Below are positions 3,887-34,822 of a DNA stretch of 40,719 nucleotides, in pieces; positions within the stretch are counted from its first letter, which is position 1; every line of letters starts with the position of its first letter. The stretch comes from Pseudomonadota bacterium (GTDB lineage: Bacteria > Pseudomonadota > Alphaproteobacteria > Rhizobiales > JACESI01): contig JBCDCU010000003.1 of NCBI GenBank assembly GCA_039181265.1, positions 1 through 40,719 on the forward strand, given 5' to 3'. The translations under genes were made by a program, and so were the position numbers. Under the pieces are notes generated by a model. The model worked only from the letters and a program-made list of their open reading frames with translations, had not been told where the DNA came from and made no database searches.

Positions 3887-4657
3887 ATGAACCGTAACCT
3901 CGCGCGCCAGATCGGCATTCCGCTTGCTGCAATCGCTCTCTTCCTCGCCTTTTGGGAATGGCTCGTCTGGTTCAATGGCTGGCCGAATTTCAAAATGGCC
4001 TCACCGTCCGATATCGGCCCCGCCTTCTGGAAGTTCCGCTATCTGTTTCTCGAGTATGGCTGGCAGACATTGTGGCGCACGGTTGCCGGTCTGATGATCG
4101 CGATTTTTGTCGGTGTTCTTCTCGGCATGATGATGGGCTTTTCAAGGACCATCCGCGAGGGGCTCTATCCGCTTCTGGTTGGTTTCAACGCGATCCCGAA
4201 GGCGACGGTGGTGCCAGTGATTGCGCTCATCTTCGTTGGGCTTGACGATTTCAACACGGTTCTGATGGCGTTCATGATTTCGTTCTTCCCGATTGCGGTT
4301 TCGGTCTCAATCGGGTTGTCGACGCTTGAACCGGAATACAGCGATATCCTGCGCTCGCTCGGGGCAAGCCGTTGGACAATTTTCTGGAAGATTGCACTTC
4401 CCAAAACCCTGCCGGAATTCTTCGGAGCGCTGAAAGTCGCCGTCACGCTTGCCTTCATCGGGACCAATCTCGTCGAGATCATCCAACCACATGGAAGGGG
4501 CCTTGTCTTCCTGTTCGATAGCGGTAAGATCAGCGCCGATTATCCGCTGATGTTCGCCGTTCTGATTGCGCTCGCCGTCCTTGGCATCTTTCTCTTCTAC
4601 ATTGTCGTTCTTCTTGAAAAGATCTTCGCCGGTTGGGCCGAGCGGGCGGCGCAGTAA
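3887..4657 (+). CDS. ABC transporter permease (NitT/TauT family)
   Basis: Multiple hydrophobic helices, EAA-like loop DILRSLGASRWTIFWKIALP, and operon position. Confidence 0.93.
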   Translation: MNRNLARQIGIPLAAIALFLAFWEWLVWFNGWPNFKMASPSDIGPAFWKFRYLFLEYGWQTLWRTVAGLMIAIFVGVLLGMMMGFSRTIREGLYPLLVGFNAIPKATVVPVIALIFVGLDDFNTVLMAFMISFFPIAVSVSIGLSTLEPEYSDILRSLGASRWTIFWKIALPKTLPEFFGALKVAVTLAFIGTNLVEIIQPHGRGLVFLFDSGKISADYPLMFAVLIALAVLGIFLFYIVVLLEKIFAGWAERAAQ

Positions 4658-4667
4658 GAGTGCCCAC

Positions 4668-5564
4668 CTATCCAGTCATGCGCATGGCCAAGAACCCGTC
4701 CGCCTCCCGGACGCTGCTACAAATGCTTGAGAGCTTGCGCGGTTCCTCATAGGGCCACGGCCGGCCGCGATGCATGACGGCGCGCTGGTCCCACATCAAA
4801 ACATCGCCGACTTGCCATTGGTGTGAATAGGTAAAGCTAGGCTCGGTGCAAGAGGCGATGAGCTCCGATAAGAGCAATTCGCTTTCGGCCTCGTCATAGC
4901 CGTCAATCCGGAAGGCGTGGCTTGCAATGTATAGCGCTTCGCGTCCGTTCACCGGGTTTTTCCAGATGGCGTTCCAGTGCTGCTCCGGCCATTTGTGAAA
5001 CATCGGCAGGCGCGCAAGCTCTTCGGAGATCTGCTTTCGCGAATGGCTCAAATGGTGCCAGATGCCGCGGCCCCGGATCTTCGCTTTCATCTCCTCCGGC
5101 ATGGCAGCCCAGGCAGCGCGGGTCGAGGCAAGTTCTGTGGCGCCGCCCGATGACGGCACGATCCGGGCTGTCGCGACATTGACGAGCGCCGGCACTGGCA
5201 GAAACGTGCTGTCGATGTGCCAAAGGAAATTCGACTTGAGGTTGAGCGTGTGGAGATCGAAGGCATCGGTCACGCTGCCGTCTTCTTTGATATTGGAGAC
5301 TTCCGGAACTTTGAAAGCTTCGCCCGGTTTGCGCACATCAGCTTCGCGGTCTTCGATCGGGCCGAAGAAGGAATTGAGCCGGATATGATCGGCGTCGGTA
5401 AGGCCCTGGCCTTTAAAGAGGAGCGCAGAATGTTCCTCGAAAAGAGCGCGGATCGGCTGGAAGTCATTCGCGGTTCTTATTTTGGTGAGATCGACATCGT
5501 GGACCTCGACGCCGAAGCAATCGATGAGGGGTGTGGTTTTCAGGCTCTGATTGAGGTCAGTCAT
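4668..5564 (-). CDS. TauD/TfdA-family Fe(II)/2-oxoglutarate-dependent dioxygenase
   Basis: FGVEVHDVDL N-terminus, HxD in WHIDSTF, NPVNGREALY, and WQVGDVLMWDQRAVMHRG followed by Arg. Confidence 0.92.
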   Translation of the reverse strand: MTDLNQSLKTTPLIDCFGVEVHDVDLTKIRTANDFQPIRALFEEHSALLFKGQGLTDADHIRLNSFFGPIEDREADVRKPGEAFKVPEVSNIKEDGSVTDAFDLHTLNLKSNFLWHIDSTFLPVPALVNVATARIVPSSGGATELASTRAAWAAMPEEMKAKIRGRGIWHHLSHSRKQISEELARLPMFHKWPEQHWNAIWKNPVNGREALYIASHAFRIDGYDEAESELLLSELIASCTEPSFTYSHQWQVGDVLMWDQRAVMHRGRPWPYEEPRKLSSICSSVREADGFLAMRMTG

Positions 5565-5732
5565 GTCGGCCCCTCGGTTTTAAAGTTGCGCGAGTGATGT
5601 GACCGGGGAGTGTGTCACCAAATGCGGGATGGATAAATATCGAAAGCGATGAAGGCGGAGCTGGGCTGGGATGTTGCCCCCAAACCGCCGCGATGCGATA
5701 GATGGGAACCATTCCAATCTCCCGTCTCGCCT

Positions 5733-8446: not shown

Positions 8447-9346
8447 TTAGCAGGCTCTTCCATCATTCGTCTCAAAAGATTCGCATAATCCCTCGATCCA
8501 GTCTGCAAGGCGTTTTACGTTCGGCGCCAGCGTCCCATCTGCCCGGTAGATCAGACCGTATTCGGAGCCATCTGCATCGAAACCACAGGGAGCGATGAGC
8601 CGACCGGATGAAACATCGTCGAGGGCGATAACGCGAGGCGAAAGGCCGACACCAAGGCCCGCGCAAGCTGCCTCGACTACGAGGAAATGGTGATCCATTT
8701 CGCGCATTTCACGAGGGCGTGGTGCAGTTGGATTGGCGGAGAGCCAGTCATCCCATGCATCTGGGCGGGTTTTTGAAACGAGCGCAACATAGTCCTCCGC
8801 TGCGAAACGCTCGCGCATCGTCTCAACCATGACGGGACCGACGGTCTCCGGGAAAAGCCGATTAACAGCCCATTTGGCGTCCAAAGAAAAATCGAGTCGT
8901 CGGAGCGCAAGGAACCCGTGATCGCGCGCCGTGTCGATTGCTCCGCCACCCACCGAGAGATGGACCGCAATGTCGGGATTAACTGTTTCGAACTGGCTAA
9001 GGCGGGGGATCAGCCAACGCATGGCGACGGACCGTTCGCAGGAAAGAAGTATTGTGTTGCTGTCCTCTTGCGCGGTTTCTCGGATGGAAGAAATCGTGCG
9101 CTCAAGATCGTCAAAACTGCGGCGGCAGGCATCGCGTAGTGCTTCCCCGGCTGATGTGAGCCTGATGCCGCGTCCTGACCGCTCCAGCAGCGGCGTTCCC
9201 ACAGTCTTCGCAAGGCGCGAAGCGCGTCGGCTGACGGCGGCGTGAGTAAGGTTCAGTTCTTCTGCCGCAGAACGCACCGATCCCATGCGTGCCGTTACCT
9301 CAAAGGCGCGCAGATCATCGAGATAAGGAAGGTCGGATCGTTTCAT
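8447..9346 (-). CDS. LysR-family transcriptional regulator (GcvA-like)
   Basis: LDDLRAFEVTARMGSVRSAAEELNLTHAAVSR HTH and WLIPRL. The true start is likely ATG 9346 (MKRSDL), not 9637. Divergent from the DUF1537 operon. Confidence 0.93.
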   Translation of the reverse strand: MKRSDLPYLDDLRAFEVTARMGSVRSAAEELNLTHAAVSRRASRLAKTVGTPLLERSGRGIRLTSAGEALRDACRRSFDDLERTISSIRETAQEDSNTILLSCERSVAMRWLIPRLSQFETVNPDIAVHLSVGGGAIDTARDHGFLALRRLDFSLDAKWAVNRLFPETVGPVMVETMRERFAAEDYVALVSKTRPDAWDDWLSANPTAPRPREMREMDHHFLVVEAACAGLGVGLSPRVIALDDVSSGRLIAPCGFDADGSEYGLIYRADGTLAPNVKRLADWIEGLCESFETNDGRAC

Positions 9347-9421: not shown

Positions 9422-10471
9422 ATGACGTCTCCTCCAAGCCCTTTTGTCGGTATCCTCGCCGATGATTTGACGAGCGCCGCAGATGGTGCGGCTCCCTTCG
9501 TGAGAAAGGGGCTTCAGGCGACGGTTTCCAGGCGGCATGTTCCGCAGTCTCGCGAAGCTGATGTTATCGCAGTCGATATGGCGACGCGCTCGATGAAGGA
9601 GAACGACGCTGCCGCCGGAGCAAGGGAAACCGCACAAAAATTGGCGGGCGCGCAGATAGTCTACAAGACAGTCGACTCAACCCTGCGTGGGCATGTCTTT
9701 GCCGAGATCAATGCGGTCATCGCGGGGAGCCAACGCAGAAGGCTGGTGTTTGCCCCGGCATTTCCCGAGGCAGGTCGGATCACACGCGATGGTTTTCAAT
9801 TCGTCGATGGCGTCCCGGTATCTGAAAGCCGCTACGGATCCGATCCGGTTCATCCGGCACGAACATCGAGGCTCTCCGACCTTGTGCCGCCTTCCGCACA
9901 AGACGCGCTCCAGATTAACGCGGAAACTCAGGATGAGTTGAATGCAAAGGTAGCCCGGATTCCCGATCCGCAAGAGGTCATCTGGGTTGGATCACCAGGC
10001 CTGGCCATTGCTTTGGCAGGACTGGTGGCCTCGACACCGGGTCGGTGCTCTGTGCCTAAGGTGAGCTCCGATATTCTGGTGGTTGTCGGCAGTATGAACG
10101 CTGTCAGCTCAGAACAGGCAAAGATGCTGGAAGACTAGACAGATGTCAGTGTTCTTCGCGTCCCCGCGGAACGTGCGGATCCCCGAGAAACACTTGCCGC
10201 GCTCACGGCTAAAGCCGTTTCGGCCCTGGAAACGGATCAATACGGAGCGATTATTGCGATGGGCGGTGATACGATGGACGCGATCCTCAATGCGATCGGT
10301 GTGAGAAGTTTCGATCTTACCGGAGAATTCGAGCCTGGATTTCCGGTTGGTCTTGCTGACTATAAAGGCGACCCGCTCGTCCTCGGTCTGAAAGCAGGCG
10401 GTTTCGGCTCCCCGGACAGTCTCCGACGGGCAGTCGATCATCTAACGCGTTCAAAGGAGTACGCTTCGTGA
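9422..10471 (+). pseudogene. Four-carbon acid sugar kinase (DUF1537/DtnK-like) interrupted by one in-frame TAG
   Basis: ILADDLTSAAD, YKTVDSTLRG and FAPAFP occur in the 5' part. After TAG at 10136-10138 the same frame stays open through GGDT and KAGGFG to TGA 10471, which overlaps the pdxA GTG. Confidence 0.85.
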
Positions 10472-11475
10472 CGCACGCTCCACTCGTCATCACCATGGGC
10501 GACCCGTCAGGGATCGGCCCGGAGATTATTGCCAAATCCTTTGCGGAAGGGCGTGCGCCGGGCTGTGTTGTGATAGGAAGCGCCTCTGTCATGCGCCAGG
10601 TAGTTGCGATGCTCGGCCTTGGATTGGAGGTCCGTGACATCCAATCGATAGAGGACGCGACATCGCCTGAAAACCAACGCGTTATTGAAGTCCTTCAGAC
10701 ATCAAAGAAAGGCGCAGAGTTTCCTGTCGGCGAAGTGTCTGCGGAAAGCGGGAAGGCCGCGTTCGACGCTATCGTCAAAGGGATCGAGCTTGCGAAATCC
10801 GGAAGAGCGTCTGGCGTCGTTACAGCCCCGATCCACAAAGAAGCCTTGGCTGCTGCGGGGATCGGCTTTCCGGGACACACCGAAATGCTCGCCGAATTTG
10901 GTGGTGCGCAAAGCGTTGCGATGATGCTTGCGAATGACGAGATCCGCACGGTGCTTGTCACGATCCATGTCAGTCTGCGCGACGCTATAGACCACGCCGA
11001 TTTTAAGGCTCAGATGTCGGCGATCCGCCTTGCGGACAAAGCCTGTCGCGATCTTGGTATTGATGCGCCCCGCGTGGCGGTCGCGGGCCTCAACCCCCAT
11101 GCGGGTGAGGGCGGTCTCTTCGGCCAGGAGGAAATTGAGATTATTACACCTGCCATTGAGGCCGCGCGCGCGGAAGGTATCGATGCGTCCGGCCCGTGGC
11201 CAGGCGACACGGTCTTCATGGCGGCACGAAGGGGGAAATTCGATGTCGTCGTAGCGCAATATCATGATCAGGGCCTCATTCCCGTGAAATATCTCGGCGT
11301 GGAAAAGGGCGTCAATGTCACCCTCGGTCTTCCCTTCGTGCGTACCTCACCGGATCATGGGACTGCGTTCGATATCGCCGGGAAGGGGATTTCCGATCCG
11401 GCAAGCCTGTCGACCGCGATTGATTACGCCCGCCGCTTGATCGCCAGACGGCACCAACCAGAGGAGGTTTTCTGA
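10468..11475 (+). CDS. pdxA: 4-hydroxythreonine-4-phosphate dehydrogenase family (PdxA2-type, likely tetronate-4-phosphate dehydrogenase)
   Basis: TMGDPSGIGPE, TAPIHK, PGHTE, GLNPHAGE, YHDQG and RTSPDHGTAFDIAG. Its position next to a DUF1537 kinase indicates the PdxA2 subgroup. Confidence 0.95.
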   Translation: MTHAPLVITMGDPSGIGPEIIAKSFAEGRAPGCVVIGSASVMRQVVAMLGLGLEVRDIQSIEDATSPENQRVIEVLQTSKKGAEFPVGEVSAESGKAAFDAIVKGIELAKSGRASGVVTAPIHKEALAAAGIGFPGHTEMLAEFGGAQSVAMMLANDEIRTVLVTIHVSLRDAIDHADFKAQMSAIRLADKACRDLGIDAPRVAVAGLNPHAGEGGLFGQEEIEIITPAIEAARAEGIDASGPWPGDTVFMAARRGKFDVVVAQYHDQGLIPVKYLGVEKGVNVTLGLPFVRTSPDHGTAFDIAGKGISDPASLSTAIDYARRLIARRHQPEEVF

Positions 11476-12533
11476 TGGGGCTTCGCTTCATCTTCATGCT
11501 CACCCGTGCCGATAAAACGGTGCCTGACGCGGCGAGCCATCTCGAAACGGCCCTGTCCCTCGGCGTGCGCCATATCGGTTTTAAGGATATCGGCCTGCCG
11601 GTTTCAGAATTGAAGGCATTGAATGAGGCGATCAAGGCAAAGGGCGCCACATCCTACCTCGAAGTTGTAAGCCGTGACCGGGAAAGCGAAGTGACATCCG
11701 CAAGGGCCGCCGTCGAGGTTGGCGTCGATATCCTCCTCGGCGGAACGGAAGTCGAGGATGTCCTGCCGATCATTAGAGGGACAGGGCTCGAATATTACCC
11801 ATTCCCCGGCCGGATCGTCGGTCATCCGAGCGTTCTCGAAGGATCCGTCGATGACATCGCTGAAAGCGCGCGCAGTCTTGCGGCCTACGAAGGCGTGACC
11901 GGGCTCGATCTTCTGGCTTACCGGTCACCGCTACCGGATATTCCGGCGATGATCAGCGCTGTCTGTGAAGCCGCAGGAAAACCAGTGATTGTCGCAGGCT
12001 CCATCGCTGAACCCGACCGCATTGCGGCGGTCCGAGATGCCGGAGCGGCTGGCTTTACCATCGGGACGGCTGCGCTCAACGGTGATTATCCGGCTGATAG
12101 TGAGGATCTTGAAACGCAGCTCTCTGCGATTGTGCGCGATGTGGCCGACCTCAACGGGCATCTGTCGCCCTTTGGCAAGAAGAGCCTTGATCGCGCGTTT
12201 GCAGCCTTTGACGACACCTGGTCGCCGCGCGTTGCCGGTCAGATCAATGCAATGCAGATTAAGCTCGCCAAATTTGAGGGAGCTTTCACCTGGCATTTTC
12301 ACGAGCGCGAGGATGAACTCTTTCTCGTTCATCGCGGACGGCTTTTGATGAAGTTTCGCGACCGCGAAGAGGTGGTGGAAGAGGGCGAGTTCATCGTCGT
12401 GCCGCATGGCGTCGAACATTGCCCTGTGGCTCTGACGGAGACCTGCGAGGTTGTGTTGTTGGAACCAGCAACGACCGTCAACACGGGAACAGCCGAGGAC
12501 GATCGCAAAGTCTTGGATCTCGCATCTGTTTGA
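11475..12533 (+). CDS. Uncharacterised phosphate-binding TIM-barrel-like domain fused to a C-terminal cupin domain
   Basis: Alternating beta/alpha N-domain (GFKDIG, YLEVVS, GLDLLAY, IVAGSI, FTIGTA). From ~12177 a cupin (WSPRVAG, WHFHEREDELF, GEFIVVPHGVEHCP). Translationally coupled to pdxA (TGATG). Confidence 0.75.
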   Translation: MGLRFIFMLTRADKTVPDAASHLETALSLGVRHIGFKDIGLPVSELKALNEAIKAKGATSYLEVVSRDRESEVTSARAAVEVGVDILLGGTEVEDVLPIIRGTGLEYYPFPGRIVGHPSVLEGSVDDIAESARSLAAYEGVTGLDLLAYRSPLPDIPAMISAVCEAAGKPVIVAGSIAEPDRIAAVRDAGAAGFTIGTAALNGDYPADSEDLETQLSAIVRDVADLNGHLSPFGKKSLDRAFAAFDDTWSPRVAGQINAMQIKLAKFEGAFTWHFHEREDELFLVHRGRLLMKFRDREEVVEEGEFIVVPHGVEHCPVALTETCEVVLLEPATTVNTGTAEDDRKVLDLASV

Positions 12534-12541
12534 ATCAGAAC

Positions 12542-12566
12542 GCGGCGGTGCTCTTAACACCGCCGC
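12542..12566. terminator. Hairpin between convergent genes
   Basis: GCGGCGGTG-ctcttaa-CACCGCCGC, a 9-bp perfect stem. Confidence 0.6.
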
Positions 12567-12595
12567 TCATTAAATAGTCCAGGGTTCGTCGGTTA

Positions 12596-13252
12596 TCAGC
12601 TTCCCGGTGTGTTCCGTACGAAGGGATTGCCGCGCTCGGCAGTCGCCGTAAACGTCATGCCTGAAATCTTCCAGCCGTCTTCGGTGCGAACGAATTCGTG
12701 CACATAGGTACCCCAGACTTCCCAAAGCGCGTTGCCGCCGTTTTCTTCAAGCGCGCCGCGCTCCATGCGGTTCCAGGCATAGCCGTGCGAGAGCATCGTG
12801 GCTGAATTGGCTCCGGTGAATGTCACGCGGTGATTGCCACGCAGGTGGAACGATGTCTTCTCAGCCGTCAGGTTCGACGACCAGCCGAGGATCAGCGCAT
12901 CGGCCGGGATCTTTGCAGGTTCGCCACCAACAAGGGAAGTAAAGTCAACATCGATGGTTTCGGTGAACAAAGAGCGGGAAAGGTCCCAGTCTTTTGCGTC
13001 AACGGCTGCATCAAGCGCATCGGCAATCCGTACCATTTCCGCGTGATCGACGAGGGTCTCTGCTGTGATGGGCGCGCCTGCCAGGTTGGCGGCTTTTGCT
13101 GCATGGGCAGTTGCATCGAGGGCGACGACGAGGCCTGCGACAGCAAGGCCCATCATTGCGATTGAAAGGGCAGACGAAATCCCTGTCACGATTGCAGTTG
13201 AGATACCTGCGGGGATCGAAGTGGCAGTCTTTGTTTCAAAAAAGCGTGTCAT
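12596..13252 (-). CDS. NTF2/SnoaL-like fold protein with N-terminal hydrophobic/signal segment
   Basis: DAAVDAKDWDLSRSLFTETIDVDF, SFHLRGNHRVT and GTYVHEFVRTEDGWKISGM. A GGAGA RBS precedes ATG 13252. Confidence 0.85.
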   Translation of the reverse strand: MTRFFETKTATSIPAGISTAIVTGISSALSIAMMGLAVAGLVVALDATAHAAKAANLAGAPITAETLVDHAEMVRIADALDAAVDAKDWDLSRSLFTETIDVDFTSLVGGEPAKIPADALILGWSSNLTAEKTSFHLRGNHRVTFTGANSATMLSHGYAWNRMERGALEENGGNALWEVWGTYVHEFVRTEDGWKISGMTFTATAERGNPFVRNTPGS

Positions 13253-13255
13253 TGT

Positions 13256-13397
13256 GTGTCTCTCCATCCGGTGTGTTCGTTGAAGGGAATGTGACACGAG
13301 TAATGAATAAATAAAAATTCTGAATAAAGATTATTTTGATGCTTTTTAGGTATTAATTGTTTCAACGATCTCGATCATGTTGGTGACGAGCGTTCCG
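13256..13397 (+). repeat. Direct repeat copy A (lysR 3' end plus downstream intergenic)
   Basis: 13352-13397 is identical over 46 bp to 15471-15516. 13256-13351 is colinear with and clearly similar to 15376-15470. Confidence 0.92.
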
Positions 13398-13576
13398 CTC
13401 GCTGGACGCGTTAGGCTGATCTTTCATCCAATTCGCTGCGGTCAATAAAGACCTGAAAACAGGAAGGAATCCGTAGGTGGAAAAGATCTGATGGACCGCC
13501 CAATCGTCATTTTCGTTTCATCAATTCATAAGCATCGGCATCGCTGTTTTTCGACTGACTTAAGGCTGAATTTTGA

Positions 13577-13592
13577 TTAATGCCTTGGTAAC
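13577..13592 (+). promoter_or_regulatory. CtrA-box-like motif upstream of the chemoreceptor
   Basis: TTAA-tgccttg-GTAAC has one mismatch to TTAA-N7-TTAAC. CtrA controls chemotaxis genes in alphaproteobacteria. Confidence 0.5.
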
Positions 13593-13644
13593 GCTGTTAT
13601 GAGAATTGTATGTATTAATACATTGTCTTACGAAAGGAAATGCG

Positions 13645-15354
13645 ATGGCAAACCCTGATGTCGGGCGCTTCAAGGGCATTGGTGCCCGCCTCACGCTAGC
13701 TTTCGCCATTGTGCTCGTCTTAATGAGCACGCTTACAGTCTTCTCGGTTTACAAAATAAACGATGTACGAGAGAGGCTGATCCAGATTAACGAGGTGAAC
13801 AGCCGCTTGCAGCGCTTCGCGATCAATTATCGTGGGAGTGTTCATGACCGCGCCATTGCCATTCGCGATGTCGTCTTGACCGATGATCCGACTATTCGTC
13901 AGGAGACTTTAAATCAGATCAAAGAGCTTGCTGCGTCTTACGCAGAAAACGAACGCGCAATGGCCGATCTTGTGAGTCGGGTCGGGCTTACGGCGGGAGA
14001 GGAAGCCACGTTGGGTGACATTGATGCAGTGCAAAGCCGCACCAATCCGTTGGTTTCTGAGATCATAGCCTTAACCGGCAATGGCGAAAATGAGAAGGCG
14101 AAAGCCCTTTTGATGAACGAGGTCAGTGAATTGTTTTCTGATTGGCTCGCGTCAATCAACCGCTTTATCGACAGCAAAGAGAGGTCGAACCAACAGATTG
14201 GAGCAACCGTTTCAGCTTCCGTTCAAAACTACTCGCTGACTGCCTATACGGCACTTGCTATCGCGGGACTGCTCACCCTTGTTGCTGGCGTCATCGTTGG
14301 GCGTTCGATTACGCGGCCGATCGGACAGCTTGTTAGTGTGATGGGGCAATTGGCATCCGGAAATCTCAAAACCGAGGTCGACGGGGCAGATCGCCAAGAT
14401 GAGATCGGTTCCATGGCAAGAGCCGTCGAAGTCTTCAAAACGAATATGATTGAGACAGAACGTTTGCGCACAGCCCAAGATGACGAGCAACAGGCGCGGG
14501 CCGATCGCCAGGAACGGATTGAAAAAGCAATCGCTGAGTTTGAACAAACAAGCGAGACCGTTCTGTCTTCGGTGTTGGGTGCCGCCCAGGGAATGAAAGG
14601 ATCAGCAAGCTCGCTTGCCTCTTCATCAGAAAAGGCAATGGCACAGGCAGAAACAGTATCCCGTGCGTCCGAGGAGGCAAGCCAGAATGTGCAAACGGTT
14701 GCAGGTGCTGCCGAGGAGCTTTCCGCATCCGTGAACGAAATCTCCGGCCAGGTTGCACGGTCTGCTGAAATGTCCCGAAACGCGACAACGAAAGCGCAGG
14801 CGACGCAAGCGACAGTGCAGGCGCTTGCTGAACGTGCGCAACAAATCGGCCAAGTCGTGAAACTGATCAGTGATATCGCTGAACAGACCAACCTGCTTGC
14901 TCTCAATGCGACGATCGAAGCAGCGCGGGCGGGTGAGGCTGGAAAGGGCTTTGCGGTCGTTGCATCCGAGGTCAAACAACTCGCTGAACAAACAGCAAAA
15001 GCAACGGGCCAGATCAGCGAAGAGATATCCGCTGTGCAGGAAGCAACCGGAGCGTCCGTATCCTCAATCGAAGAAATTGCTAGTGAAATCAATCAGCTCG
15101 ACGAAATTGCCGCAACGATTGCTGCTGCGGTCAACCAGCAGGGATCCGCGAGTGACGAAATTGCGCGCAACGTTCAACAGGCGGCTCAGGGAACCGGCGA
15201 GGTTACCTCGGGGCTGGTCCATGTTCGGGAAGTGTCGAAGGCAAACAGTGAGTCATCAGCCGAAGCACTCAACGCTTCCGAAGCGATGAACAGACAGGTC
15301 GACGAGATTAAGGGATCGATTGCATCCTTCCTGAACAAAATTCGCGCAGCTTAA
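13645..15354 (+). CDS. Methyl-accepting chemotaxis protein (four-helix-bundle sensor, HAMP, MCP signalling domain)
   Basis: Two TM helices, HAMP (ITRPI...DEIGSMARA) and [34 protein letters not shown]. An AAAGGA RBS precedes ATG 13645. Confidence 0.96.
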
Positions 15355-15375
15355 GCGCCTATGACCCGAAACAGC

Positions 15376-15516
15376 GTGTCCTTCCATCCGGTGTTTTCGC
15401 TGGGTGGAAGGCGAACGGAATGAAGATCACCGGGAATTCAGGATGCCGATTGGGTTAATGCATTTCAGGCATTAATTGTTTCAACGATCTCGATCATGTT
15501 GGTGACGAGCGTTCCG
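15376..15516 (+). repeat. Direct repeat copy B (overlaps the intact lysR 3' end)
   Basis: Partner of 13256-13397, offset 2119-2120 bp. Confidence 0.92.
15380..15411. terminator. Hairpin between convergent MCP and lysR genes
   Basis: CCTTCCATCCGGTG-TTTT-CGCTGGGTGGAAGG forms a 14-bp stem with three G-U pairs. Confidence 0.55.
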
Positions 15517-16352
15517 GGCGGCTTTCCTGCAATGAAGAGAAACTCGATTGGAACGGAAAGCCCTTTCACCTTGCGGAACTGGACCCGGTTTGGCGGTCGT
15601 TCAATATTGGCTGAATTCACGAAGGCACAGCCGACACCAGCGGAAACAAGGCTCAGCATGGTCGTCTCATTGTTCGCTTCCTGGGCGACAAACGGGGCGA
15701 GGCCGAGATCGGAAAGCGCCTTTGAGAGTTTATCGTAATACGCAGGTGCGACGGCGCGGGGAAAGGCGACGATCGGGAGCCCGTCTATGTCTTCAAGGTC
15801 GAGCGGGCCGTCATGATCAAAGACGAGATCGGTGGAAGCGGCAAGAACAACGTCGTCAATGCGCAGGGGAAAAACGGTGAGAGCATCGTCGGAGAGATTG
15901 TCCTGCCTGTAGACAAAGCCCGCATCGATCTCACCGGCAAGAAGCGCGTTGATCTGATCCACCGAGCTCATCGGCTGAATGTCGAGCTGAACATTCGGAT
16001 AGCGGCGGGCATAAAGGTTCATTGTGATCGGCAAATGCCCGGACCAGGCGGCACTCTCAAGAAGCCCGATCCTGAGGCGCCCAGCGGATCCGCGTGCGAT
16101 GTTGCGGGCTTCATCCGCTGCAGCCTCGGCCTCTTCGAGAATAGTCCGCGCTTTTTTCGCGAAAGCCTGTCCGGCATCGCTCAAGACAACACGGCGTCCG
16201 TCTCGGATCAAAAGATCGACGCCAAGCTCGGCCTCAAGATCGCGGATTTGCCGCGAGACCGCTGGTTGTGCGATCCGAAGGCGCTCGGCGGCATGGCTGA
16301 TCCCGCCATGATCGGCGACGGCGACGAAATAGCGAAGGTGGCGGAGCTCCAT
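15465..16352 (-). CDS. LysR-family transcriptional regulator (HcaR/BenM-like)
   Basis: MELRHLRYFVAVA...AAERLRIAQPAVSRQIRDLEAELGV HTH and LSLVSAGVG. Start taken as ATG 16352. Confidence 0.95.
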   Translation of the reverse strand: MELRHLRYFVAVADHGGISHAAERLRIAQPAVSRQIRDLEAELGVDLLIRDGRRVVLSDAGQAFAKKARTILEEAEAAADEARNIARGSAGRLRIGLLESAAWSGHLPITMNLYARRYPNVQLDIQPMSSVDQINALLAGEIDAGFVYRQDNLSDDALTVFPLRIDDVVLAASTDLVFDHDGPLDLEDIDGLPIVAFPRAVAPAYYDKLSKALSDLGLAPFVAQEANNETTMLSLVSAGVGCAFVNSANIERPPNRVQFRKVKGLSVPIEFLFIAGKPPGTLVTNMIEIVETINA

Positions 16353-16358
16353 TATTAA

Positions 16359-16373
16359 ATGCCTCAAAGGTAT
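16359..16373. promoter_or_regulatory. LysR box
   Basis: ATGCC-tcaaa-GGTAT (T-N11-A) resembles ATAC-N7-GTAT and lies in the divergent lysR/EamA spacer. Confidence 0.6.
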
Positions 16374-16453
16374 AGGTCTGAGTGCTTAATAGCATTGGAA
16401 GGTATTGAATACGACGGCTATGTTGAAACGATCTTAATCGAGAAGAGGCCGCG

Positions 16454-17383
16454 ATGAACACCAGAACACCTTTTGCTTCCATTGCGGGTCCGGCACTTGG
16501 CGCGCTCACTGTGCTTTGCTGGTCTGCCTATAATGTCGCCGCAAAGCAGGGGATCGATGAAGGGCTTGCGCCGGAGGTCCTATCGTTTCTGCGCTTTTCT
16601 GTGCCGGGATTGATCGCGGTTCCAACGTTGGCGGTCTTTCTCATGAAGAGACGGTGGTCACCGGTCCCGCTTCACCGCCTCGCTGTACTGACCTTTCTTG
16701 GCGGCCCGGTTTTCGGCGTCATGGCGGTTTCCGGTTATTCTTATGCACCACTCTCGCACGGGCTCTTGTTTGCCCCCGTCGCAGTGTTTTTGAGCGCGGC
16801 CTTCTTCGGGCGGCTTCTTCTTGGCGAGGCGGTGACGCGTCCCCGCATATTCGGGGCGCTCACCATGTTTTCCGGTCTTGCTGTCCTTGTCGGCTTTGAG
16901 ACATCCGACCTTTCTGAAGAGTGGTTGCGCGGCACGCTCTTTTTCGGTCTCGCGGGCGCAATGTGGGGCGCCTATACGGTGCTTTTGAAGCACTGGCAGA
17001 TCCCGTTCCTGTCGGGCGCGCTTGCGGTTTCTGCGGGCTCGTCTTTCGCCTCGCTCATTGTGCTTGGACCGGTCGTTTATGGCGCTATAGCAGTGACGCC
17101 CGTCGAGAGCATCCTCTTCCAGGCGGTGATGCAGGGGCTTGTCGGCGGTGTTTTGAGTGTTATCGCGCTGATTGGTGCTTTGCGGGCCCTGTCGGCCCAG
17201 ACAGCAGCCCTTCTTCCGACCTTCTCGCCGGCAGTCGCACTCCTTATCGCGGCCCTCTTCGGGGCCGCTTGGCCAACACCAGCTGAACTTATCGGCATGG
17301 TGGTGATCGCGCTGGGATTTATGGTTGCTTCGGGTTTCAGGGCGCGATGGATCACAAGAGGTGCGTGGGCGAGGGCTGCTTAG
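16454..17383 (+). CDS. DMT/EamA-family transporter
   Basis: About 10 TM helices in two repeats, with LSFLRF, LLLGE and WGAYTVL motifs. Divergent from lysR. Confidence 0.88.
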   Translation: MNTRTPFASIAGPALGALTVLCWSAYNVAAKQGIDEGLAPEVLSFLRFSVPGLIAVPTLAVFLMKRRWSPVPLHRLAVLTFLGGPVFGVMAVSGYSYAPLSHGLLFAPVAVFLSAAFFGRLLLGEAVTRPRIFGALTMFSGLAVLVGFETSDLSEEWLRGTLFFGLAGAMWGAYTVLLKHWQIPFLSGALAVSAGSSFASLIVLGPVVYGAIAVTPVESILFQAVMQGLVGGVLSVIALIGALRALSAQTAALLPTFSPAVALLIAALFGAAWPTPAELIGMVVIALGFMVASGFRARWITRGAWARAA

Positions 17384-17422
17384 CGTCAAACCGAGATTGG
17401 TAACCAGGAAAGAACTGCGCAT

Positions 17423-17923
17423 TTGCGAGCAGTTTGGCGAGATGCAAGGATAGAATTATTTCAAAACATTCAATTAGGTATAATCAACGTGCGCGAGATT
17501 TTGGAACGAATACTGCCTCCTTTGGTTGGGTCGATCATGCTCCTTATCATAGGCGTATTTTTCTTTATCTTGTTGGATTCTCGCTACCTGTTTCACCACT
17601 ACCGGCTATTCTACGCTGAACATGAGTGCTACACGCGGGAAGGTCTCTTTTTGAACAATGGCATCCATTGCGAGTTCGACCATCAAGCAAGTGTTCAGCG
17701 ATCGATTTTCGAAGGGAGAGCATTCGGTGCGAATGTTGGCTCGATCTTTGAGGCCAACCGCTTTGCCAAGGCGACCTGCCTGGACCACTGTCAAAGCCGC
17801 GAAAACTGCTCAGAGTTTGTCGTCTCGGCACCGCGGGAGTTTTTTAATAGCAGCCTCATGGTATCGGAACGGGGATCGTGGGCGTGTGTTCTTATTGAGC
17901 TATGGGAACCCAAAACACACTAG
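17423..17923 (+). CDS. Hypothetical membrane-anchored Cys-rich protein (PAN/apple-like motif)
   Basis: One TM helix and CLDHCQSRENCSEF...CVL. The ORF fills the intergenic gap and has an AT-richer 5' part. The start may be GTG 17489. Confidence 0.6.
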   Translation: MRAVWRDARIELFQNIQLGIINVREILERILPPLVGSIMLLIIGVFFFILLDSRYLFHHYRLFYAEHECYTREGLFLNNGIHCEFDHQASVQRSIFEGRAFGANVGSIFEANRFAKATCLDHCQSRENCSEFVVSAPREFFNSSLMVSERGSWACVLIELWEPKTH

Positions 17924-18030
17924 AAATGTTTCGTGTGTGGCTCAACGCTCAGTGCATTGAGTCGCTTCAAACTCATAAGGGGCAATGTTTGTGTCATGCA
18001 ATGATTGCCGAGTGACATTGGGATGACGTC

Positions 18031-18525
18031 GTGGCTGCAACGAACAAGGCGGACCTGCTTCAGATCACCCGCAAGGAATTCGACAAGCTCGCGAAGCTGA
18101 TCGACGCGCTTGATGAAGACCTCGCTATGGCAAAGCAGGAAGACGACACGTCAATCAAAGACGTGATCGCCCACCGCGCCCATTGGATCGATCTCTTTCT
18201 TTGCTGGTATCACGACGGGCAGGCGGGAAAGACGGTCCACTTTCCGGCTGAAGGCTATAAGTGGAACGATCTTAAGCGCTACAACGCTGACTTGAGGGAA
18301 AAGCAGGCCGGGATCGGCTGGGTGGATGCCGTCACGATGCTCCGGGACCGTAACGCAAAGCTGGAAGCGTTCATTGAAAGTCTCTCCGAAGAGGCGCTTT
18401 ATGGCGGCCCGATGAAAGGAGCGTACAACAAATGGACGCCCGGCCGATGGGCTGAAGCGGCTGGACCAAGCCATTTTCGCTCTGCGTCGAAATTCATTCG
18501 CGCGGTCCTCAGAAAGCCACGGTAA
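18031..18525 (+). CDS. ClbS/DfsB-family (DUF1706, DinB-like four-helix bundle) protein
   Basis: ATNKADLL, SIKDVIAHRAHW, FPAEGYKWN and WAEAAGPSHF. Confidence 0.85.
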   Translation: MAATNKADLLQITRKEFDKLAKLIDALDEDLAMAKQEDDTSIKDVIAHRAHWIDLFLCWYHDGQAGKTVHFPAEGYKWNDLKRYNADLREKQAGIGWVDAVTMLRDRNAKLEAFIESLSEEALYGGPMKGAYNKWTPGRWAEAAGPSHFRSASKFIRAVLRKPR

Positions 18526-18684
18526 CGGGCTTTGCGATGATGGTGTGATGTCGAAGCGGTTCACTTCCTTCGAGGGCTCATTTACCTATGTTGCCGGAGA
18601 GGCGATCTCCCCCGGATTCGCTACTGGAAGCAGTCGAAAAACGACGTAGACGGCTAGTGTTGAACTATAAAACGGAGATGTTTC

Positions 18685-19152
18685 TTGCCGTGTTTTTTTC
18701 GTGTGCATTTGACAACACAAGAGATAATCGCGGCTCCAAAATATGCCCATGGTCGCTATTTGGCTGATGCAAAAATTGACCTCATCGGAGGAGCGGAAGC
18801 TTATGAACTCCGAACCTGCGATTTTTTCTTAGAGCGATGGGGTCTGTCCTGGTTCGGTCACTTTGAGGCAGTCGGCCGGTGGCCAAAGGGGGATAACTCA
18901 CCTGAAACAGGTGCGGCTTATCTGTGCTTGCACAATCTCACAATCCTTCGGGACGATTATCCGCCGCACGGGCAGCCATTTGAAGTTGGAGATCGTTTTG
19001 AGATGAGCAAGAACGGCAAATCCATCGGAGCATGCGTCATAACGCTGTTGCCGAATTATCGTGATTCTGTGCAATTGGACGCTCCGCACGACCCTCCAAG
19101 AATGGGGCTTTCCACGACACCTTGGGTCGAAGTTCCGCGCCCGTCTGAGTAA
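18685..19152 (+). CDS. Hypothetical protein
   Basis: GGAG RBS 7 nt before TTG. The C-terminal FEVGDRFEMSKNGKSIGACVI resembles an EF-Tu domain-III-like beta-barrel end. Confidence 0.55.
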   Translation: MPCFFRVHLTTQEIIAAPKYAHGRYLADAKIDLIGGAEAYELRTCDFFLERWGLSWFGHFEAVGRWPKGDNSPETGAAYLCLHNLTILRDDYPPHGQPFEVGDRFEMSKNGKSIGACVITLLPNYRDSVQLDAPHDPPRMGLSTTPWVEVPRPSE

Positions 19153-19323
19153 GGGGGCTGAGGTTTTCCGTCTCGCTATGGAGTTTGCAACTCCAAATAG
19201 ACGCCTCAATCCGCTTCTCCCCGCTTCAAATGACGCTCTTGATTGTTTATCCACCGTGGCTCTAAGGCAGGTGATATCGTTGACAAGTGTGAGCCGCTAT
19301 AAACAATAATCCAGTAAACTCAG

Positions 19324-19365
19324 AACGTAATTTCCCGTAAAAATAACGTAAATTCTGTTAAAAAA
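19324..19365 (+). promoter_or_regulatory. Helically phased direct repeats upstream of the YHS gene
   Basis: CGTAA, CGTAA, CGTAA and GTTAA at 19326, 19336, 19347 and 19357 (10-11 bp period), forming two imperfect 21-bp units. Confidence 0.5.
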
Positions 19366-32984: not shown

Positions 32985-34289
32985 TCATTGCCCAAGTCCC
33001 AAAACGCCCGGCAACCACAAGATCAGTCCTGGTATCGCTAGAAGGAGCCCAAGGCGGACGATATCGGCACAGATGAACGGTAGCACGCCGCGTGAGACAT
33101 CGCTCAGGGAAATCCGTGGCGCGACGCCTTTGATCACGAAAAGGTTCATGCCAATCGGCGGCGTGATCAGTCCGATTTCAACGACCGACACCATGAGCAC
33201 GCCAAACCATATTGGATCATAACCAAGCCCGGTGACGAGAGCATGCGCCGGAACGACGGTGAGAAGAATGATCGACAGGGCATCCATGAAACATCCAAGC
33301 ACGATGTAAAAGGCGAGAAGCGCGAGGATGACAAGGGCAGGTGGGAGGTTTGACGCGGTGATCCAGTCAAGCAGCGTTTCAGTAAGTTTCGACTGCTCGA
33401 GAAAGAAATTGAAGAGAGCCGCCCCGATCAGGATCATGAAAATCATGCCTGTCATCGACGCGGTTTCGAGCATACCAGCCCGCAGGGTTTTCGCATTCAA
33501 ACGGCGCCTTGCAAAGGCGATCAAGAGAGCGCCACCGGCGCCGACGGCTGCTGCCTCTGTTGGCGAAAAGAAGCCTGCATAAATCCCGCCGATCACCACA
33601 AAAATCAGAAGAAGGGCATCCCACATGCCGGCAAGGGCTCGCATCCGCTCCGGCCACGCGACAAGCGGGGTTGGCGGGGCCGCATCCGGGTTGCGGGCGA
33701 CGATAATACGGATCGTCACAATATAGAGCCCCGCAGCAAGGAGCCCCGGGATTAGAGCACCGGCAAAGAGTGCGCCGATCGATTCTTCCGTCATCAAGGC
33801 GTAGATCACCAAAAGGATAGATGGCGGGATCAAAACACCCAGTGTGCCGCCGGCTGCGACCACTGCGCCCGCAAGTTTTCTGCGGTAATTGAGCCGCTCC
33901 ATCTCAGGAAGCGCGATCTTGCCCATTGTCGCGCAGGTCGCGAGCGACGATCCGCTGATCGCTCCAAAGACCGCACAGGCCCCGATCGTCGCGGAAGCTA
34001 GACCGCCGGGCCGGTGGCCGACAAACGCGACAAGGCCGCGGAAAAGGTTTTCCGAGAGGCCGGAATGGCCCGCAAAAACACCCATGAAAATGAAGAGCGG
34101 AACAACCGACAGGCCATAGGGAAAGATTGCCTCGAAGGGCAGGCTCGCAATGACGTAGCTTGCCGAAAACCAATCCCCGAGGAGGATCGCGCCGACAATG
34201 CCAACGCTCGCCATGGCGATTGCGACGGGGACCCGGCACATGGCAAGGATAAGCGCAATTCCAAAGCCTGCGAACCCGACCCAGGCCAT
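32985..34289 (-). CDS. dctM: TRAP transporter large permease
   Basis: VPLFIFMG, FGAISGSSLA, AAGGTLGVLIPPS, FSPTEAAAVG and EIGLITPPIGMNLFV. Start ATG 34289. Confidence 0.95.
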   Translation of the reverse strand: MAWVGFAGFGIALILAMCRVPVAIAMASVGIVGAILLGDWFSASYVIASLPFEAIFPYGLSVVPLFIFMGVFAGHSGLSENLFRGLVAFVGHRPGGLASATIGACAVFGAISGSSLATCATMGKIALPEMERLNYRRKLAGAVVAAGGTLGVLIPPSILLVIYALMTEESIGALFAGALIPGLLAAGLYIVTIRIIVARNPDAAPPTPLVAWPERMRALAGMWDALLLIFVVIGGIYAGFFSPTEAAAVGAGGALLIAFARRRLNAKTLRAGMLETASMTGMIFMILIGAALFNFFLEQSKLTETLLDWITASNLPPALVILALLAFYIVLGCFMDALSIILLTVVPAHALVTGLGYDPIWFGVLMVSVVEIGLITPPIGMNLFVIKGVAPRISLSDVSRGVLPFICADIVRLGLLLAIPGLILWLPGVLGLGQ

Positions 34290-34290
34290 A

Positions 34291-34809: not shown

Positions 34810-34822
34810 CGGATGGTATCCG

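Follow-up and report, generated by a model that had tools for sequence, protein, structure and literature searches.

The chemoreceptor gene between lysR and snoaL in this alphaproteobacterial genome is best read as the product of a single insertion with long target duplication, followed by divergent fates of the two target copies that include gene conversion, a reading to which we give a probability of roughly 60%. By this mechanism, a 1,978-bp foreign segment, with a chemoreceptor gene and the upstream region belonging to it, would have entered the compact lysR-snoaL junction, a dedicated recombinase playing no part, and about 141 bp of the target would have been doubled, comprising 46 or more base pairs at the end of lysR together with the stop codon and, beyond that, the full intergenic region to the snoaL start. 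Duplication of the junction could thereby have kept both neighbours functional, the left copy preserving the snoaL control region and the right copy the 3′ end of lysR. In the right copy, a snoaL promoter that was no longer needed would have faced into the new gene in the antisense direction; this copy would then have shed its AT-rich tract, ribosome-binding site (RBS) and ATG, and become a perfect hairpin ending the chemoreceptor transcript, while the 46-bp lysR part would have stayed identical, or been remade so, through recent homologous recombination between the copies. Recombinase-free insertion of this type has already been described, and the locus is a fairly ordinary example of it, with the mosaic repeat as its twist.

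The window is the whole stretch of DNA analysed, 40,719 nucleotides, and belongs to a genome (G000) with a metagenome-style assembly of 508 contigs and 3.82 Mb that is ~70% complete. The comparison genomes are one of the same genus (G001, ~95% complete) and one of another family (G036). Directly observed are the anatomy of the locus, the empty sites in relatives, the missing mobility genes and the mosaic divergence of the repeat. The features, in window positions, are:

12596..13252, minus strand: snoaL, a SnoaL_4 domain protein of 218 aa (Pfam PF13577, E 9e-21), with 95% aa identity to its G001 ortholog
13256..13351, minus strand: left (native) intergenic copy, with 83/96 positions identical to the single junction of G001
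13352..13397, minus strand: left 46-bp repeat copy, orphan and non-coding, corresponding to lysR codons -17 to -3, 46/46 identical to the right copy
13398..15375, plus strand: insert of 1,978 bp that is not in G001, made up of 247 bp upstream of the MCP gene, that gene itself and 21 bp past its stop
13577..13592, plus strand: TTAA-N7-GTAAC site, which departs from TTAA-N7-TTAA by one mismatch and precedes the MCP ATG by 53 bp
13645..15354, plus strand: MCP, an intact methyl-accepting chemotaxis protein of 569 aa with 4HB_MCP_1 sensor, HAMP and MCPsignal domains
15376..15470, minus strand: right intergenic copy (IG_B), apparently decayed and remodelled, containing the lysR stop codon at 15465-15467
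15380..15411, plus strand: hairpin with a perfect 14-bp stem and a 4-nt loop, beginning 25 nt past the MCP stop
15465..16352, minus strand: lysR, an intact LysR-type regulator of 295 aa (Pfam HTH_1 and LysR_substrate), with 94% aa identity to G001
15471..15516, minus strand: right 46-bp repeat copy, inside the lysR coding sequence
16454..17383, plus strand: eamA-family transporter gene, divergent from lysR

The repeat first drew attention as a 46-bp identical direct repeat, and both sets of coordinates in the original prediction are verified: the copies at 13352-13397 and 15471-15516 agree at 46/46 positions and are spaced 2119 bp apart. The right copy was correctly described as the last codons of lysR (an ORF with LysR_substrate and HTH_1 domains) and the left as non-coding, with a stop at the equivalent position; the in-frame orphan ends ACC TAA, its diverged final codon and stop occupying 13346-13351, and lysR itself ends GCC TGA. 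The suggested search for further copies finds only these two in the whole 3.82-Mb assembly, both of them flanks of the insert, with up to 3 mismatches allowed (a reversed-pattern control gives 0), and blastn-short returns the same two and none further in G000. The exact part of the repeat was therefore right at 46 bp, but its extent was understated, as similarity spans ~141 bp (13256-13397 and 15376-15516). The duplication consists of the lysR 3′ end plus the intergenic junction, with the 46-mer as its conserved core, and the similarity runs leftward over all of the intergenic DNA as far as the start codon of snoaL. Here, 13256-13351 and 15376-15470 are identical at 61/95 aligned positions (64%, 1 gap), with a local-alignment z of 10.7 against 300 shuffles. 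The edges of the repeat are sharp, with z = 0.6-1.3 beyond 13397 and z = 0 left of the snoaL start. A longer original duplication was considered and rejected on the values beyond 13397, where the lysR protein frames also fall within the shuffle range, as was one reaching past the snoaL start.

In G001, lysR is followed directly by snoaL, and the single junction (C53:13107-13247) matches both repeat copies, 13256-13397 and 15376-15516 alike, over exactly 141 bp. Contig C53 aligns to 12598-13396 (91%) and to 15376-17383 (89%), the two alignments overlapping by the same 141 bp, and synteny is broken at 13396/15376. A metagenome search with SnoaL as the query, together with G036, extends this picture, with lysR immediately preceding snoaL in the G036 genome and at 8 metagenomic loci (L062, L063, L068, L071, L074, L079, L086 and L087). 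The junction is uninterrupted in 10 independent loci, which represent three or more families, none with an MCP gene there; an MCP gene lies near snoaL in 0/44 metagenomic snoaL loci, and the unit occupies 0/11 related lysR-snoaL loci. In the ancestral arrangement, snoaL sits downstream of lysR, and eamA<>lysR>snoaL forms a conserved module, eamA adjoining lysR also in G001, L062 and L068. The empty site that the original prediction proposed looking for in relatives is thus found in the same genus and beyond, and G001, G036 and the 8 metagenomic loci support its claim that the MCP gene entered an ancestral lysR-snoaL junction.

The opposite polarity, in which the MCP gene was ancestral between lysR and snoaL and was deleted in G001 and other lineages, is extremely improbable. 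Recombination between the repeats would yield exactly the junction of G001, and because it would recreate that junction, G001 alone gives no direction; the 10 uninterrupted loci, however, also share an intergenic architecture that is single-copy and conserved across them. The MCP gene has a below-average GC3 of 0.554 (6.5th percentile among 1865 ORFs) and no orthologue found in G001, and the duplication of the junction must anyway have come with its arrival. Insertion after the G000/G001 split cannot be told, with one same-genus genome, from insertion before the split followed by precise loss in G001.

Only the MCP gene and its own upstream region lie between the repeat copies, as the ORF and domain search bears out. 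PF12729, PF00672 and PF00015 are recognized in one intact ORF, each above its gathering cut-off, and the ORF lies 247 bp from the left 46-mer on its upstream side and ~116 bp from the right 46-mer on its downstream side. The insert has no homology to lysR or snoaL sequence, and no similar DNA was detected elsewhere in G000. The best matches of the protein reach 47% identity in G001, 49% in a G000 paralog and 59% among 5.8 billion proteins. A full-length plasmid match reaches ~42% at best, phages match only in a conserved signalling segment of roughly 100 bp, and genome contigs give best values of 58-70% in other gene contexts; the sensor domain has a match in 10/401 genomes of the order (best 46%). 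No near-identical MCP unit was found in other genomes, plasmids, phages or the 5.8e9 proteins, and no donor in genome contigs, plasmids, phages, the 5.8e9 proteins or the 401 genomes of the order. A paralogous source inside G000 was considered and rejected: the genome holds no second snoaL, lysR relatives are at most 31% identical, and nothing resembles the MCP upstream region or IG_B. As for the promoter described as CtrA-like, the one-mismatch TTAA-N7-TTAA motif is present, and sites of that motif class precede 6/15 MCP ORFs vs 139/2383 ORFs overall (Fisher p = 1.1e-4); sites of this type are ones we take to be linked to CtrA. Rfam families gave no match, and the sigma-70 promoter and terminator scan gave results at chance level.

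The absence of a recombinase gene, noted at the outset, holds for the insert and for the whole 40.7-kb contig, where none of the 41 ORFs encodes an integrase, transposase, recombinase or phage protein, and no terminal inverted repeats pair the insert ends. An integrative element would be expected to carry a cognate integrase in or beside it and to recur at the same or other att sites elsewhere, and neither is found. DNA transposons, IS elements and MITEs combine terminal inverted repeats with duplications of <15 bp, in contrast to the ~141 bp seen here, while the contig has no IntI-like gene for an integron cassette and the MCP gene has its own upstream region; the hairpin after the gene is not counted as an attC site because it derives from the resident intergenic region. 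The original analogy with attL and attR fails in that the 46-mer, rather than standing alone as an att core, is the stretch without divergence in a ~141-bp target duplication, the other 95 bp of which are 64% identical and apparently old. The notion of a discrete mobile cassette fares no better, the unit being single in the genome and absent from the other contexts, plasmids and phages searched, with the nearest MCP at 59%.

It is nevertheless conceivable that a 2.1-kb unit, or its remnant, integrated through an attP sharing the 46-bp core with the lysR 3′ end, using a recombinase encoded elsewhere, and we judge this improbable. As in att-flanked genomic islands and prophages, direct repeats contain a gene 3′ end, the target gene is left intact by an insertion at that end, and an identical core is bordered by dissimilar or diverged arms; an assembly ~70% complete also leaves room for a trans-acting integrase. 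Unlike such islands, the unit measures 2.1 kb, carries a single cargo gene, has no recombinase gene in the insert or among the 41 contig ORFs and shows no second occurrence, whether in the other genomes, plasmids and phages searched or at the 11 related loci. The 46-mer, present just twice in the genome, has no clear dyad on inspection by eye. The repeat is moreover a duplicated resident junction, with in-register similarity continuing for 95 bp past the core to the start of the next gene, snoaL, as target duplication predicts.

Insertion with long target duplication was reportedly described by Nobusato et al. in 2000 (Gene 259:99). The criteria set out by Furuta, Abe and Kobayashi include an insert of <20 kb without mobility genes, a duplication of >30 bp, alignment of both repeats to one empty-site target, and a repeat that is otherwise unique (Furuta et al., 2010; PMC2853133). 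At the present locus, the insert is 1,978 bp, with no mobility genes among the 41 contig ORFs, the duplication is ~141 bp (46 of them exact), both repeats align to the single empty-site sequence of G001 (C53), and 2/2 copies of the repeat in the ~70% complete assembly are the flanks. The likeness extends to direct repeats, tens to hundreds of bp long in the published class and often overlapping a gene 3′ end, around a short insert lacking integrase and transposase; the H. influenzae cases detailed in that work have 46-bp repeats that overlap a gene end, and repeats in other cases reach ~420 bp (PMC2853133). The published definition rests on inserts that carry restriction-modification systems, whose enzymes the authors suspected of playing a part by breaking DNA (PMC2853133). 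The only gene in our insert encodes an MCP, with no restriction or modification gene beside it, and we treat this last criterion as a property of the published screen rather than of the rearrangement type; because the cargo is a chemoreceptor, breakage made by the cargo is excluded here as the trigger. The repeats reported for the published examples are near-identical throughout, such as 44/46 and 417/423 (PMC2853133), unlike the mosaic of 46/46 beside 61/95 found here, which implies an old event after which the two halves went separate ways. Capture by end joining was also considered and dropped, as Ku (PF02735) is found in 0/2 genomes (G000 ~70% and G001 ~95% complete).

The mosaic emerges when the two copies are compared with the single junction of G001. 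The left intergenic copy retains a dyad near the old lysR stop, an AT-rich CAGAATTTTTAT-like tract, a GGAGAG RBS and the snoaL ATG, features common to 7 other lineages in the alignment. IG_B is without the AT-rich promoter-like tract, RBS and ATG of snoaL, which 8 other lineages conserve. Its identity is 61/95 to the left copy and 67/95 to G001, which is its nearest sequence in the alignment (69/101, other lineages ≤48/101). In this intergenic part, the copies share 2 changes relative to G001, with 8 private to the left and 23 to the right; 16 of those 23 are AT>GC, and the GC content of IG_B stands at 0.53, up from 0.34-0.38. In the 46-mer, both copies share 7 changes and 0 are private, a contrast with the intergenic part that is significant (Fisher p = 1.9e-6).

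Jukes-Cantor (JC) branch lengths for the intergenic part are 0.13 (left), 0.36 (right) and 0.02 (G001), and the median dS between G000 and G001 is 0.36 (31 genes). These values suggest an old duplication, dating from about the time when G000 and G001 parted, with the clock-based age an overestimate because some of the changes in the right copy (the hairpin and the lost promoter) are probably adaptive. Had the 46-mers diverged at the slowest observed rate, they would show 0 differences over 46 bp with a probability of 0.018, and at neutral rates with one of 3e-4 to 3e-6. Zero divergence of the 46-mers inside an old duplication therefore points to recent recombination between them, most simply by gene conversion. 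Gene conversion and concerted evolution occur between short direct repeats in bacterial genomes. As in concerted evolution, the copies are identical to one another and differ from the sister-species orthologue (7/46 shared, 0 private). Unlike its usual form, the tract here is 46 bp, ending at the limit of homology on one side and at functional divergence on the other.

The hairpin illustrates the fate of the right copy. It has a dG of -27.5 kcal/mol (z = -3.1), with 0/200 shuffles equally stable, and the minus strand of the region has z = 0.2; because of its G-U pairs, the structure is restricted to the MCP-sense strand. The hairpin is derived from the resident intergenic region, where 14/14 pairs form in the right copy vs 10/14 in the left copy and 11/14 in G001. 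From this comparison of sequences, selection appears to have acted on the right copy, reshaping former intergenic DNA into the 3′ hairpin of the MCP gene.

A different origin for IG_B, which we regard as unlikely, is that one-ended homologous recombination brought it in from a sister lineage, with the MCP gene already linked to this foreign, diverged copy. Crossover (Campbell-type or homology-facilitated illegitimate) would take place at the resident lysR 46-mer, freshly duplicating only 46 bp, for example through integration of a circularised fragment or integration bridging sister chromatids. A homology-facilitated, one-ended recombination route was reportedly described by de Vries and Wackernagel and by Prudhomme et al., in 2002 in each case. 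Precedents for one-ended anchoring and for duplicating inter-chromatid integration appear in two papers, which cover RecA-dependent routes for foreign DNA joined to a short homologous anchor to enter a chromosome, with the anchor left duplicated (PMC3784515; PMC5361080). Import would account directly for the mosaic, with a fresh 46-bp identity beside orthologue-like divergence, and IG_B is indeed ancestral at the 8 positions changed in the resident copy. Synonymous divergence from G001 is also raised in the insert-proximal halves of both neighbours (lysR 0.71 vs 0.24, p = 1e-4; snoaL 0.46 vs 0.14, p = 1e-3), yet these proximal values fall within the half-gene background of 0.10-0.85 (31 genes), and we do not claim a divergence island around the insert. 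A donor with 64% intergenic identity is unlikely to be 46/46 identical in adjoining coding DNA, where even G001 differs at 7/46, and IG_B is closest to the G001 and G000 versions and to no other lineage. Because IG_B lacks the promoter, RBS and ATG features kept by every sampled lineage, it must have been long redundant already in the supposed donor, and the origin of the duplication would merely be moved there. In all of these routes the incoming DNA must carry the anchor, unlike the situation here, where no such donor was found in the searches described above and the decayed IG_B argues for an old duplication.

Could the arrangement be an artefact, in which the 46-bp repeat was mis-threaded and the true state is an empty site plus MCP DNA from elsewhere or from another strain? 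We consider this very improbable. The assembly is of metagenome style in 508 contigs, the same sample also contains a relative resembling G001 at 3-5 times the depth, with loose ends at 12533 and 12598 that match G001, and the read-level data, Logan k=31 contigs from three runs of one study, break inside both 46-mers and cannot phase the repeat. The repeat nonetheless has two in-edges and two out-edges, so that the only other threading leaves the site empty and closes 2,119 bp into a circle without a replication gene. The MCP unitigs, at a depth of 8.0-8.9, fit the G000 flanks and not the relative at 28-53, and 46 bp is shorter than an ordinary read, which should allow single reads to thread the repeat. 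Moreover, the long and specific joint evolution of IG_B and the 3′ end of the MCP gene (the hairpin) is sensible only with physical linkage to lysR.

Excision and amplification of the 2119-bp unit are possible in principle, and direct repeats of this kind are described as permitting amplification (PMC2853133, via its ref. 84). The sign of recent recombination between the 46-mers makes this part of the original prediction reasonable in mechanistic terms. Depth is flat across the unit (MCP unitigs 8.0-8.9, flanks 7.3-14.2), and no 2,119-bp skip is listed in the k=31 contigs, whose breaks within both 46-mers would hide a circle as well as an empty site. Run X2 (word share 0.26) was considered as an empty-site variant and rejected, as it reflects low depth of the same organism. 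It is doubtful that the chemoreceptor gene forms a recombinase-free, scarlessly reversible cassette whose 46-mers are kept identical by repeated recombination. If it did, the MCP gene would drop out to restore lysR-snoaL, re-enter a conspecific empty site and be able to amplify, and insertions with long target duplication would generally make self-reversible units, of which this genome has at least two (C2, C3) and possibly a third (C70).

Read as an insertion with long target duplication, the locus offers a clean example, outside restriction-modification systems, of a poorly understood route of gene gain, in which the duplicated target junction leaves neither neighbour harmed and makes the event reversible without a scar. 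Its chemoreceptor cargo argues against the cargo's own nuclease driving such insertions. The locus may also display the long-term fate of such a scar, one half having probably been stripped of a now-harmful promoter and made into a hairpin for the new gene, while the other half, still identical to its partner, would record recombination that goes on between the repeats. In annotation, a stray gene-end fragment such as this should not be called an att site unless a recombinase or a second occurrence is present.

Further indels between G000 and G001 lie in the window (17384-18019, 18516-19330, and 4.2 kb extra in G001) without flanking duplication. The C3 46-mer and a C70 47-mer match at only 9/11 positions, estimated to be at chance level, and a motif shared between them was rejected. 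A second scar of the same kind in this genome is verified on contig C2, where a repeat of ~95 bp and ~92% identity occurs in copies 4,924 bp apart.

The chemoreceptor gene MCP is bracketed by a 46-mer that occurs identically at 13352-13397 and 15471-15516, 2119 bp apart, which confirms the observation on which the original prediction was built. The right copy is coding sequence at the 3′ end of lysR, while the left copy is non-coding and, as had been noted, retains a stop at the equivalent position when read in frame (ACC TAA versus GCC TGA in lysR). The 46-mers enclose 247 bp of non-coding DNA, a single intact MCP gene, and about 116 bp.

13256-13397 and 15376-15516: left (snoaL side) and right (lysR side) copies of the duplicated unit, about 141 bp, from sequence alignment
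13577-13592: TTAA-N7-TTAA-type site with one mismatch, upstream of MCP
13645-15354: MCP gene, intact, with 4HB_MCP_1, HAMP, and MCPsignal
15465-16352, minus strand: lysR, LysR-type regulator, containing the right 46-mer as coding sequence

The observation is also extended, as the 46 bp are the exact core of a repeat that is larger than was claimed. Similarity continues in register past the 46-mer, across the entire spacer between lysR and snoaL and up to the start codon of snoaL, with one 1-nt gap (z = 10.7 against 300 shuffles for the extension), and ends sharply on both sides (z = 0.6-1.3 past 13397; z = 0 left of the snoaL start). The genome search for further copies that had been proposed returned only the two flanks in the whole assembly of the source genome, G000 (3.82 Mb in 508 contigs, about 70% complete; up to 3 mismatches, with blastn-short concordant), while a reversed-pattern control of the 46-mer gave 0 matches in the same assembly.

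The direction of the event is given by relatives. One contig of G001, the sole same-genus genome compared, matches 12598-13396 (91%) and 15376-17383 (89%), and because these matches overlap by exactly 141 bp, snoaL directly follows lysR in G001, with a single junction copy. The same arrangement is found in G036, a genome of another family. A metagenome scan with SnoaL provided 45 loci, 44 of which gave a SnoaL match by tblastn; an upstream same-strand LysR orthologue (58-74% identical) is present in 9 of the 44, with lysR directly adjoining snoaL in eight (L062, L063, L068, L071, L074, L079, L086, and L087) and separated from it by a short-chain dehydrogenase gene in L066. Many other SnoaL loci have more than 1.2 kb of upstream sequence yet lack such a lysR, which makes the pairing frequent without being universal. 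No MCP homologue occurs in the fetched flanks of any of the 44 loci. The uninterrupted junctions in G001, G036, and the eight metagenomic loci indicate that the uninterrupted state is ancestral and that MCP arrived as a 1,978-bp insertion (13398-15375); the empty site that was to be sought in relatives is thus present, and the claim that MCP entered an ancestral lysR-snoaL junction stands.

Insertions with long target duplication, as described by Furuta, Abe and Kobayashi (2010; PMC2853133), are inserts of less than 20 kb with duplications of more than 30 bp, where both repeats align to a single sequence of a genome with the empty site, the repeat is unique in the genome, and no mobile-element genes are linked to the insert; their examples include 46-bp repeats overlapping a gene 3′ end and repeats of up to about 420 bp. 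The MCP locus has every structural feature of that description, while its cargo is a chemoreceptor instead of the restriction-modification genes that their screen required (PMC2853133). The insertion reading is supported, and the locus is a member of this described class, unusual in its cargo and age. Neither the insert nor the 40.7-kb contig with its 41 ORFs includes an integrase, transposase, phage, or plasmid gene, in line with the earlier remark that no recombinase is encoded, and the remaining genes of the contig are those of ordinary metabolism. No inverted repeat pairing the insert ends was found, and an Rfam search gave no match. Entry of MCP as an att-like or mobile cassette is not supported.

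A second such scar occurs in G000 on contig C2, where one large ORF (C2:5869-10278) is flanked by direct repeats about 95 bp long and about 92% identical (about 5493-5590 and 10417-10514, a spacing of 4,924 bp); their divergence is even, whereas the MCP repeat is mosaic. On contig C70, a 47-bp exact direct repeat (C70:7310-7356 and 8553-8599; L123:2811-2857 and 4054-4100) brackets a single pentapeptide-repeat gene (C70:7516-8427, plus strand). A convergent pyroglutamyl-peptidase gene has its 3′ end 43 bp away from the right copy, and the left copy is intergenic, a topology that is that of the MCP case. G001 homology begins exactly at the right copy, and since the other G001 flank matches neither G000 flank, C70 is a replacement boundary and not a clean empty site; a diverged extension is weak (20/40 in register; short local match on the left, z = 4.2). 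G000 also carries GC-rich interspersed intergenic repeats of REP/MITE type (exact matches of 35-100 bp on C43, C48, C120, C131, C174, and C389), which are unrelated to the 46-mer.

The mosaic becomes visible when G001 is used as a third sequence to polarise the differences between the copies. Intergenic identity is 61/95 between left and right, 83/96 between left and G001, and 67/95 between right and G001. Both G000 copies have 2 changes in common, while a further 8 are confined to the left and 23 to the right, 16 of these 23 being AT to GC (intergenic GC 0.34 left, 0.53 right, and 0.38 in G001). The two 46-mers, by contrast, have the same 7 differences from G001 (39/46 identical), 4 synonymous and 3 not by our own reading. 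Set against each other, 2 shared and 31 private intergenic changes versus 7 shared and 0 private in the 46-mer (Fisher p = 1.9e-6), the two parts of the repeat have different histories. In the intergenic part, Jukes-Cantor (JC) branches measure 0.13 (left), 0.36 (right), and 0.02 (G001). At synonymous sites, G000 and G001 differ by a median of 0.36 (range 0.16-0.70; 31 of 36 ORFs, those with an orthologue in the fetched G001 DNA). The right branch would therefore place the separation of the intergenic copies at about the age of the species split, or earlier, a clock age that is an upper estimate because some of the change on that branch is probably adaptive. The right copy retains the G001 state at all eight positions changed in the resident left copy, which rules it out as a recent copy of that sequence. 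It matches G001 at 69/101, the left copy at 63/101, and six other lineages at 48/101 or less, and by its sequence is not foreign in the wide sense.

Had the orphan 46-mer decayed over that time, the probability of 0 differences would be 0.018 at the slowest rate seen, that of the constrained left intergenic copy, and 3e-4 to 3e-6 at neutral rates. Selection on the sequence was rejected as the cause of identity, since the 46-mer is not conserved between species. Its identity would instead be explained by recent recombination between the copies, with gene conversion as the simplest form; the pattern would look no different after repeated unequal exchange, or after excision followed by re-entry. 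For the origin of the 46-bp part, the chief competing explanation is one-ended homologous anchoring or inter-chromatid integration, both reported as duplication routes in transformable bacteria (PMC3784515, PMC5361080). On recent recombination, identity suggests that the two copies interact, and in principle excision by homologous recombination over 46 identical bases would restore the exact ancestral junction, while unequal exchange would amplify the unit, though neither product was seen. To the described class, the mosaic repeat adds a modest but informative case. Behind such insertions Furuta et al. suspected double-strand breaks by carried restriction enzymes (PMC2853133); a chemoreceptor cargo argues for a more general process. 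End-joining capture was tested via Ku and rejected, Ku not being found in G000 or G001.

The intergenic copies have met different fates. The spacer layout is conserved in eight other lineages:

13340-13352 and 15455-15475: dyad overlapping the lysR stop codon, GATGCC-N5-GGCATC-like
AT-rich tract, CAGAATTTTTAT-like
Ribosome-binding site GGAGA, then the snoaL ATG

The left copy keeps the dyad, tract, ribosome-binding site, and ATG, and about 139 bp of native DNA thus still precede snoaL. In the right copy, GC-rich sequence replaces the AT-rich tract, and the ribosome-binding site and ATG are lost; a promoter region kept here would fire antisense into MCP, and its loss was plausibly selected. An ancestral imperfect hairpin (10-11/14 pairs) became 14/14 in the right copy, giving a stem-loop at 15380-15411 that starts 25 nt past the MCP stop (dG -27.5 kcal/mol, z = -3.1, 0/200 shuffles as stable); three pairs being G-U, it can form on the MCP-sense strand but not on the other. 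The stop-codon dyad is conserved across lineages (for example L062, L068, L074, and L006) and resembles the T-N11-A pattern of a LysR box, suggesting that LysR may control snoaL from a putative site partly inside its own last codons.

In reads, the sequence is present in one public study, as k=31 contigs; the 46-bp repeat exceeds k, so unitigs end 30 nt into each 46-mer and the joins are unphased. The only alternative threading, an empty site plus a 2.1-kb circle, is unlikely, since such a circle has no replication function and the co-evolution of the right copy with MCP is hard to square with a separate molecule. For the insertion, depth is flat (MCP unitigs 8.0 and 8.9; G000 flanks 7.3-14.2), so the k=31 unitigs point neither to amplification nor to a large subpopulation with an empty site. 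A G001-like relative, about 8% diverged, reaches depth 28-53; in sequencing run X1 (11500-17500 examined, runs X1-X3) it co-occurs with G000 at 3-5 times higher depth, and its loose ends match the snoaL-cupin junction of G001.

G001 lacks an orthologue of MCP (best match 47%), and G000 lacks a close paralogue (best 49%); each genome has at least 20 MCP genes, mostly pairing up. Among 5.8 billion proteins, its best full-length relative shows 59% identity, and the closest homologues with context, in Rhizobiaceae/Hyphomicrobiales assemblies, have no lysR or snoaL nearby and no non-coding similarity to the MCP locus. Identity of the sensor domain alone does not exceed 46% across 401 genomes of the order, and the plasmid and phage collections searched held nothing close. 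With a GC3 of 0.554, the gene ranks at the 6.5th percentile of 1865 ORFs, slightly lower than ten paralogous MCPs (0.564-0.622). The predicted CtrA-like promoter is reasonable as a motif, the one-mismatch TTAA-N7-TTAA-type site being a putative CtrA site. Such sites (up to 1 mismatch, 250 nt upstream) precede 6/15 MCP ORFs versus 139/2383 ORFs overall (p = 1.1e-4), and exact sites 2/15 versus 23/2383 genome-wide in G000, a hint that chemoreceptor genes may have a regulator in common.

Other G000/G001 indels in the window are without flanking duplication. G000-only segments at 17384-18019 and 18516-19330, neither with a flanking duplication, each hold one low-GC ORF with no Pfam match (17423-17923, GC 0.48; 18685-19152, GC3 0.49). 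The TRAP transporter genes dctPQM (32985-35863) are without counterpart at the corresponding syntenic position of G001, where the interval is only about 0.4 kb (C72:12171-12588). The snoaL-cupin gap is 64 bp in G000 (12534-12597) versus about 4.2 kb in G001 (C53:13906-18113; L059:7907-12114), where it encodes a 1008-aa protein without Pfam match and an OmpA-family protein. Across the window, synonymous divergence varies over 0.16-0.70 between genes and 0.10-0.85 between gene halves, which suggests a patchwork of recombination histories.
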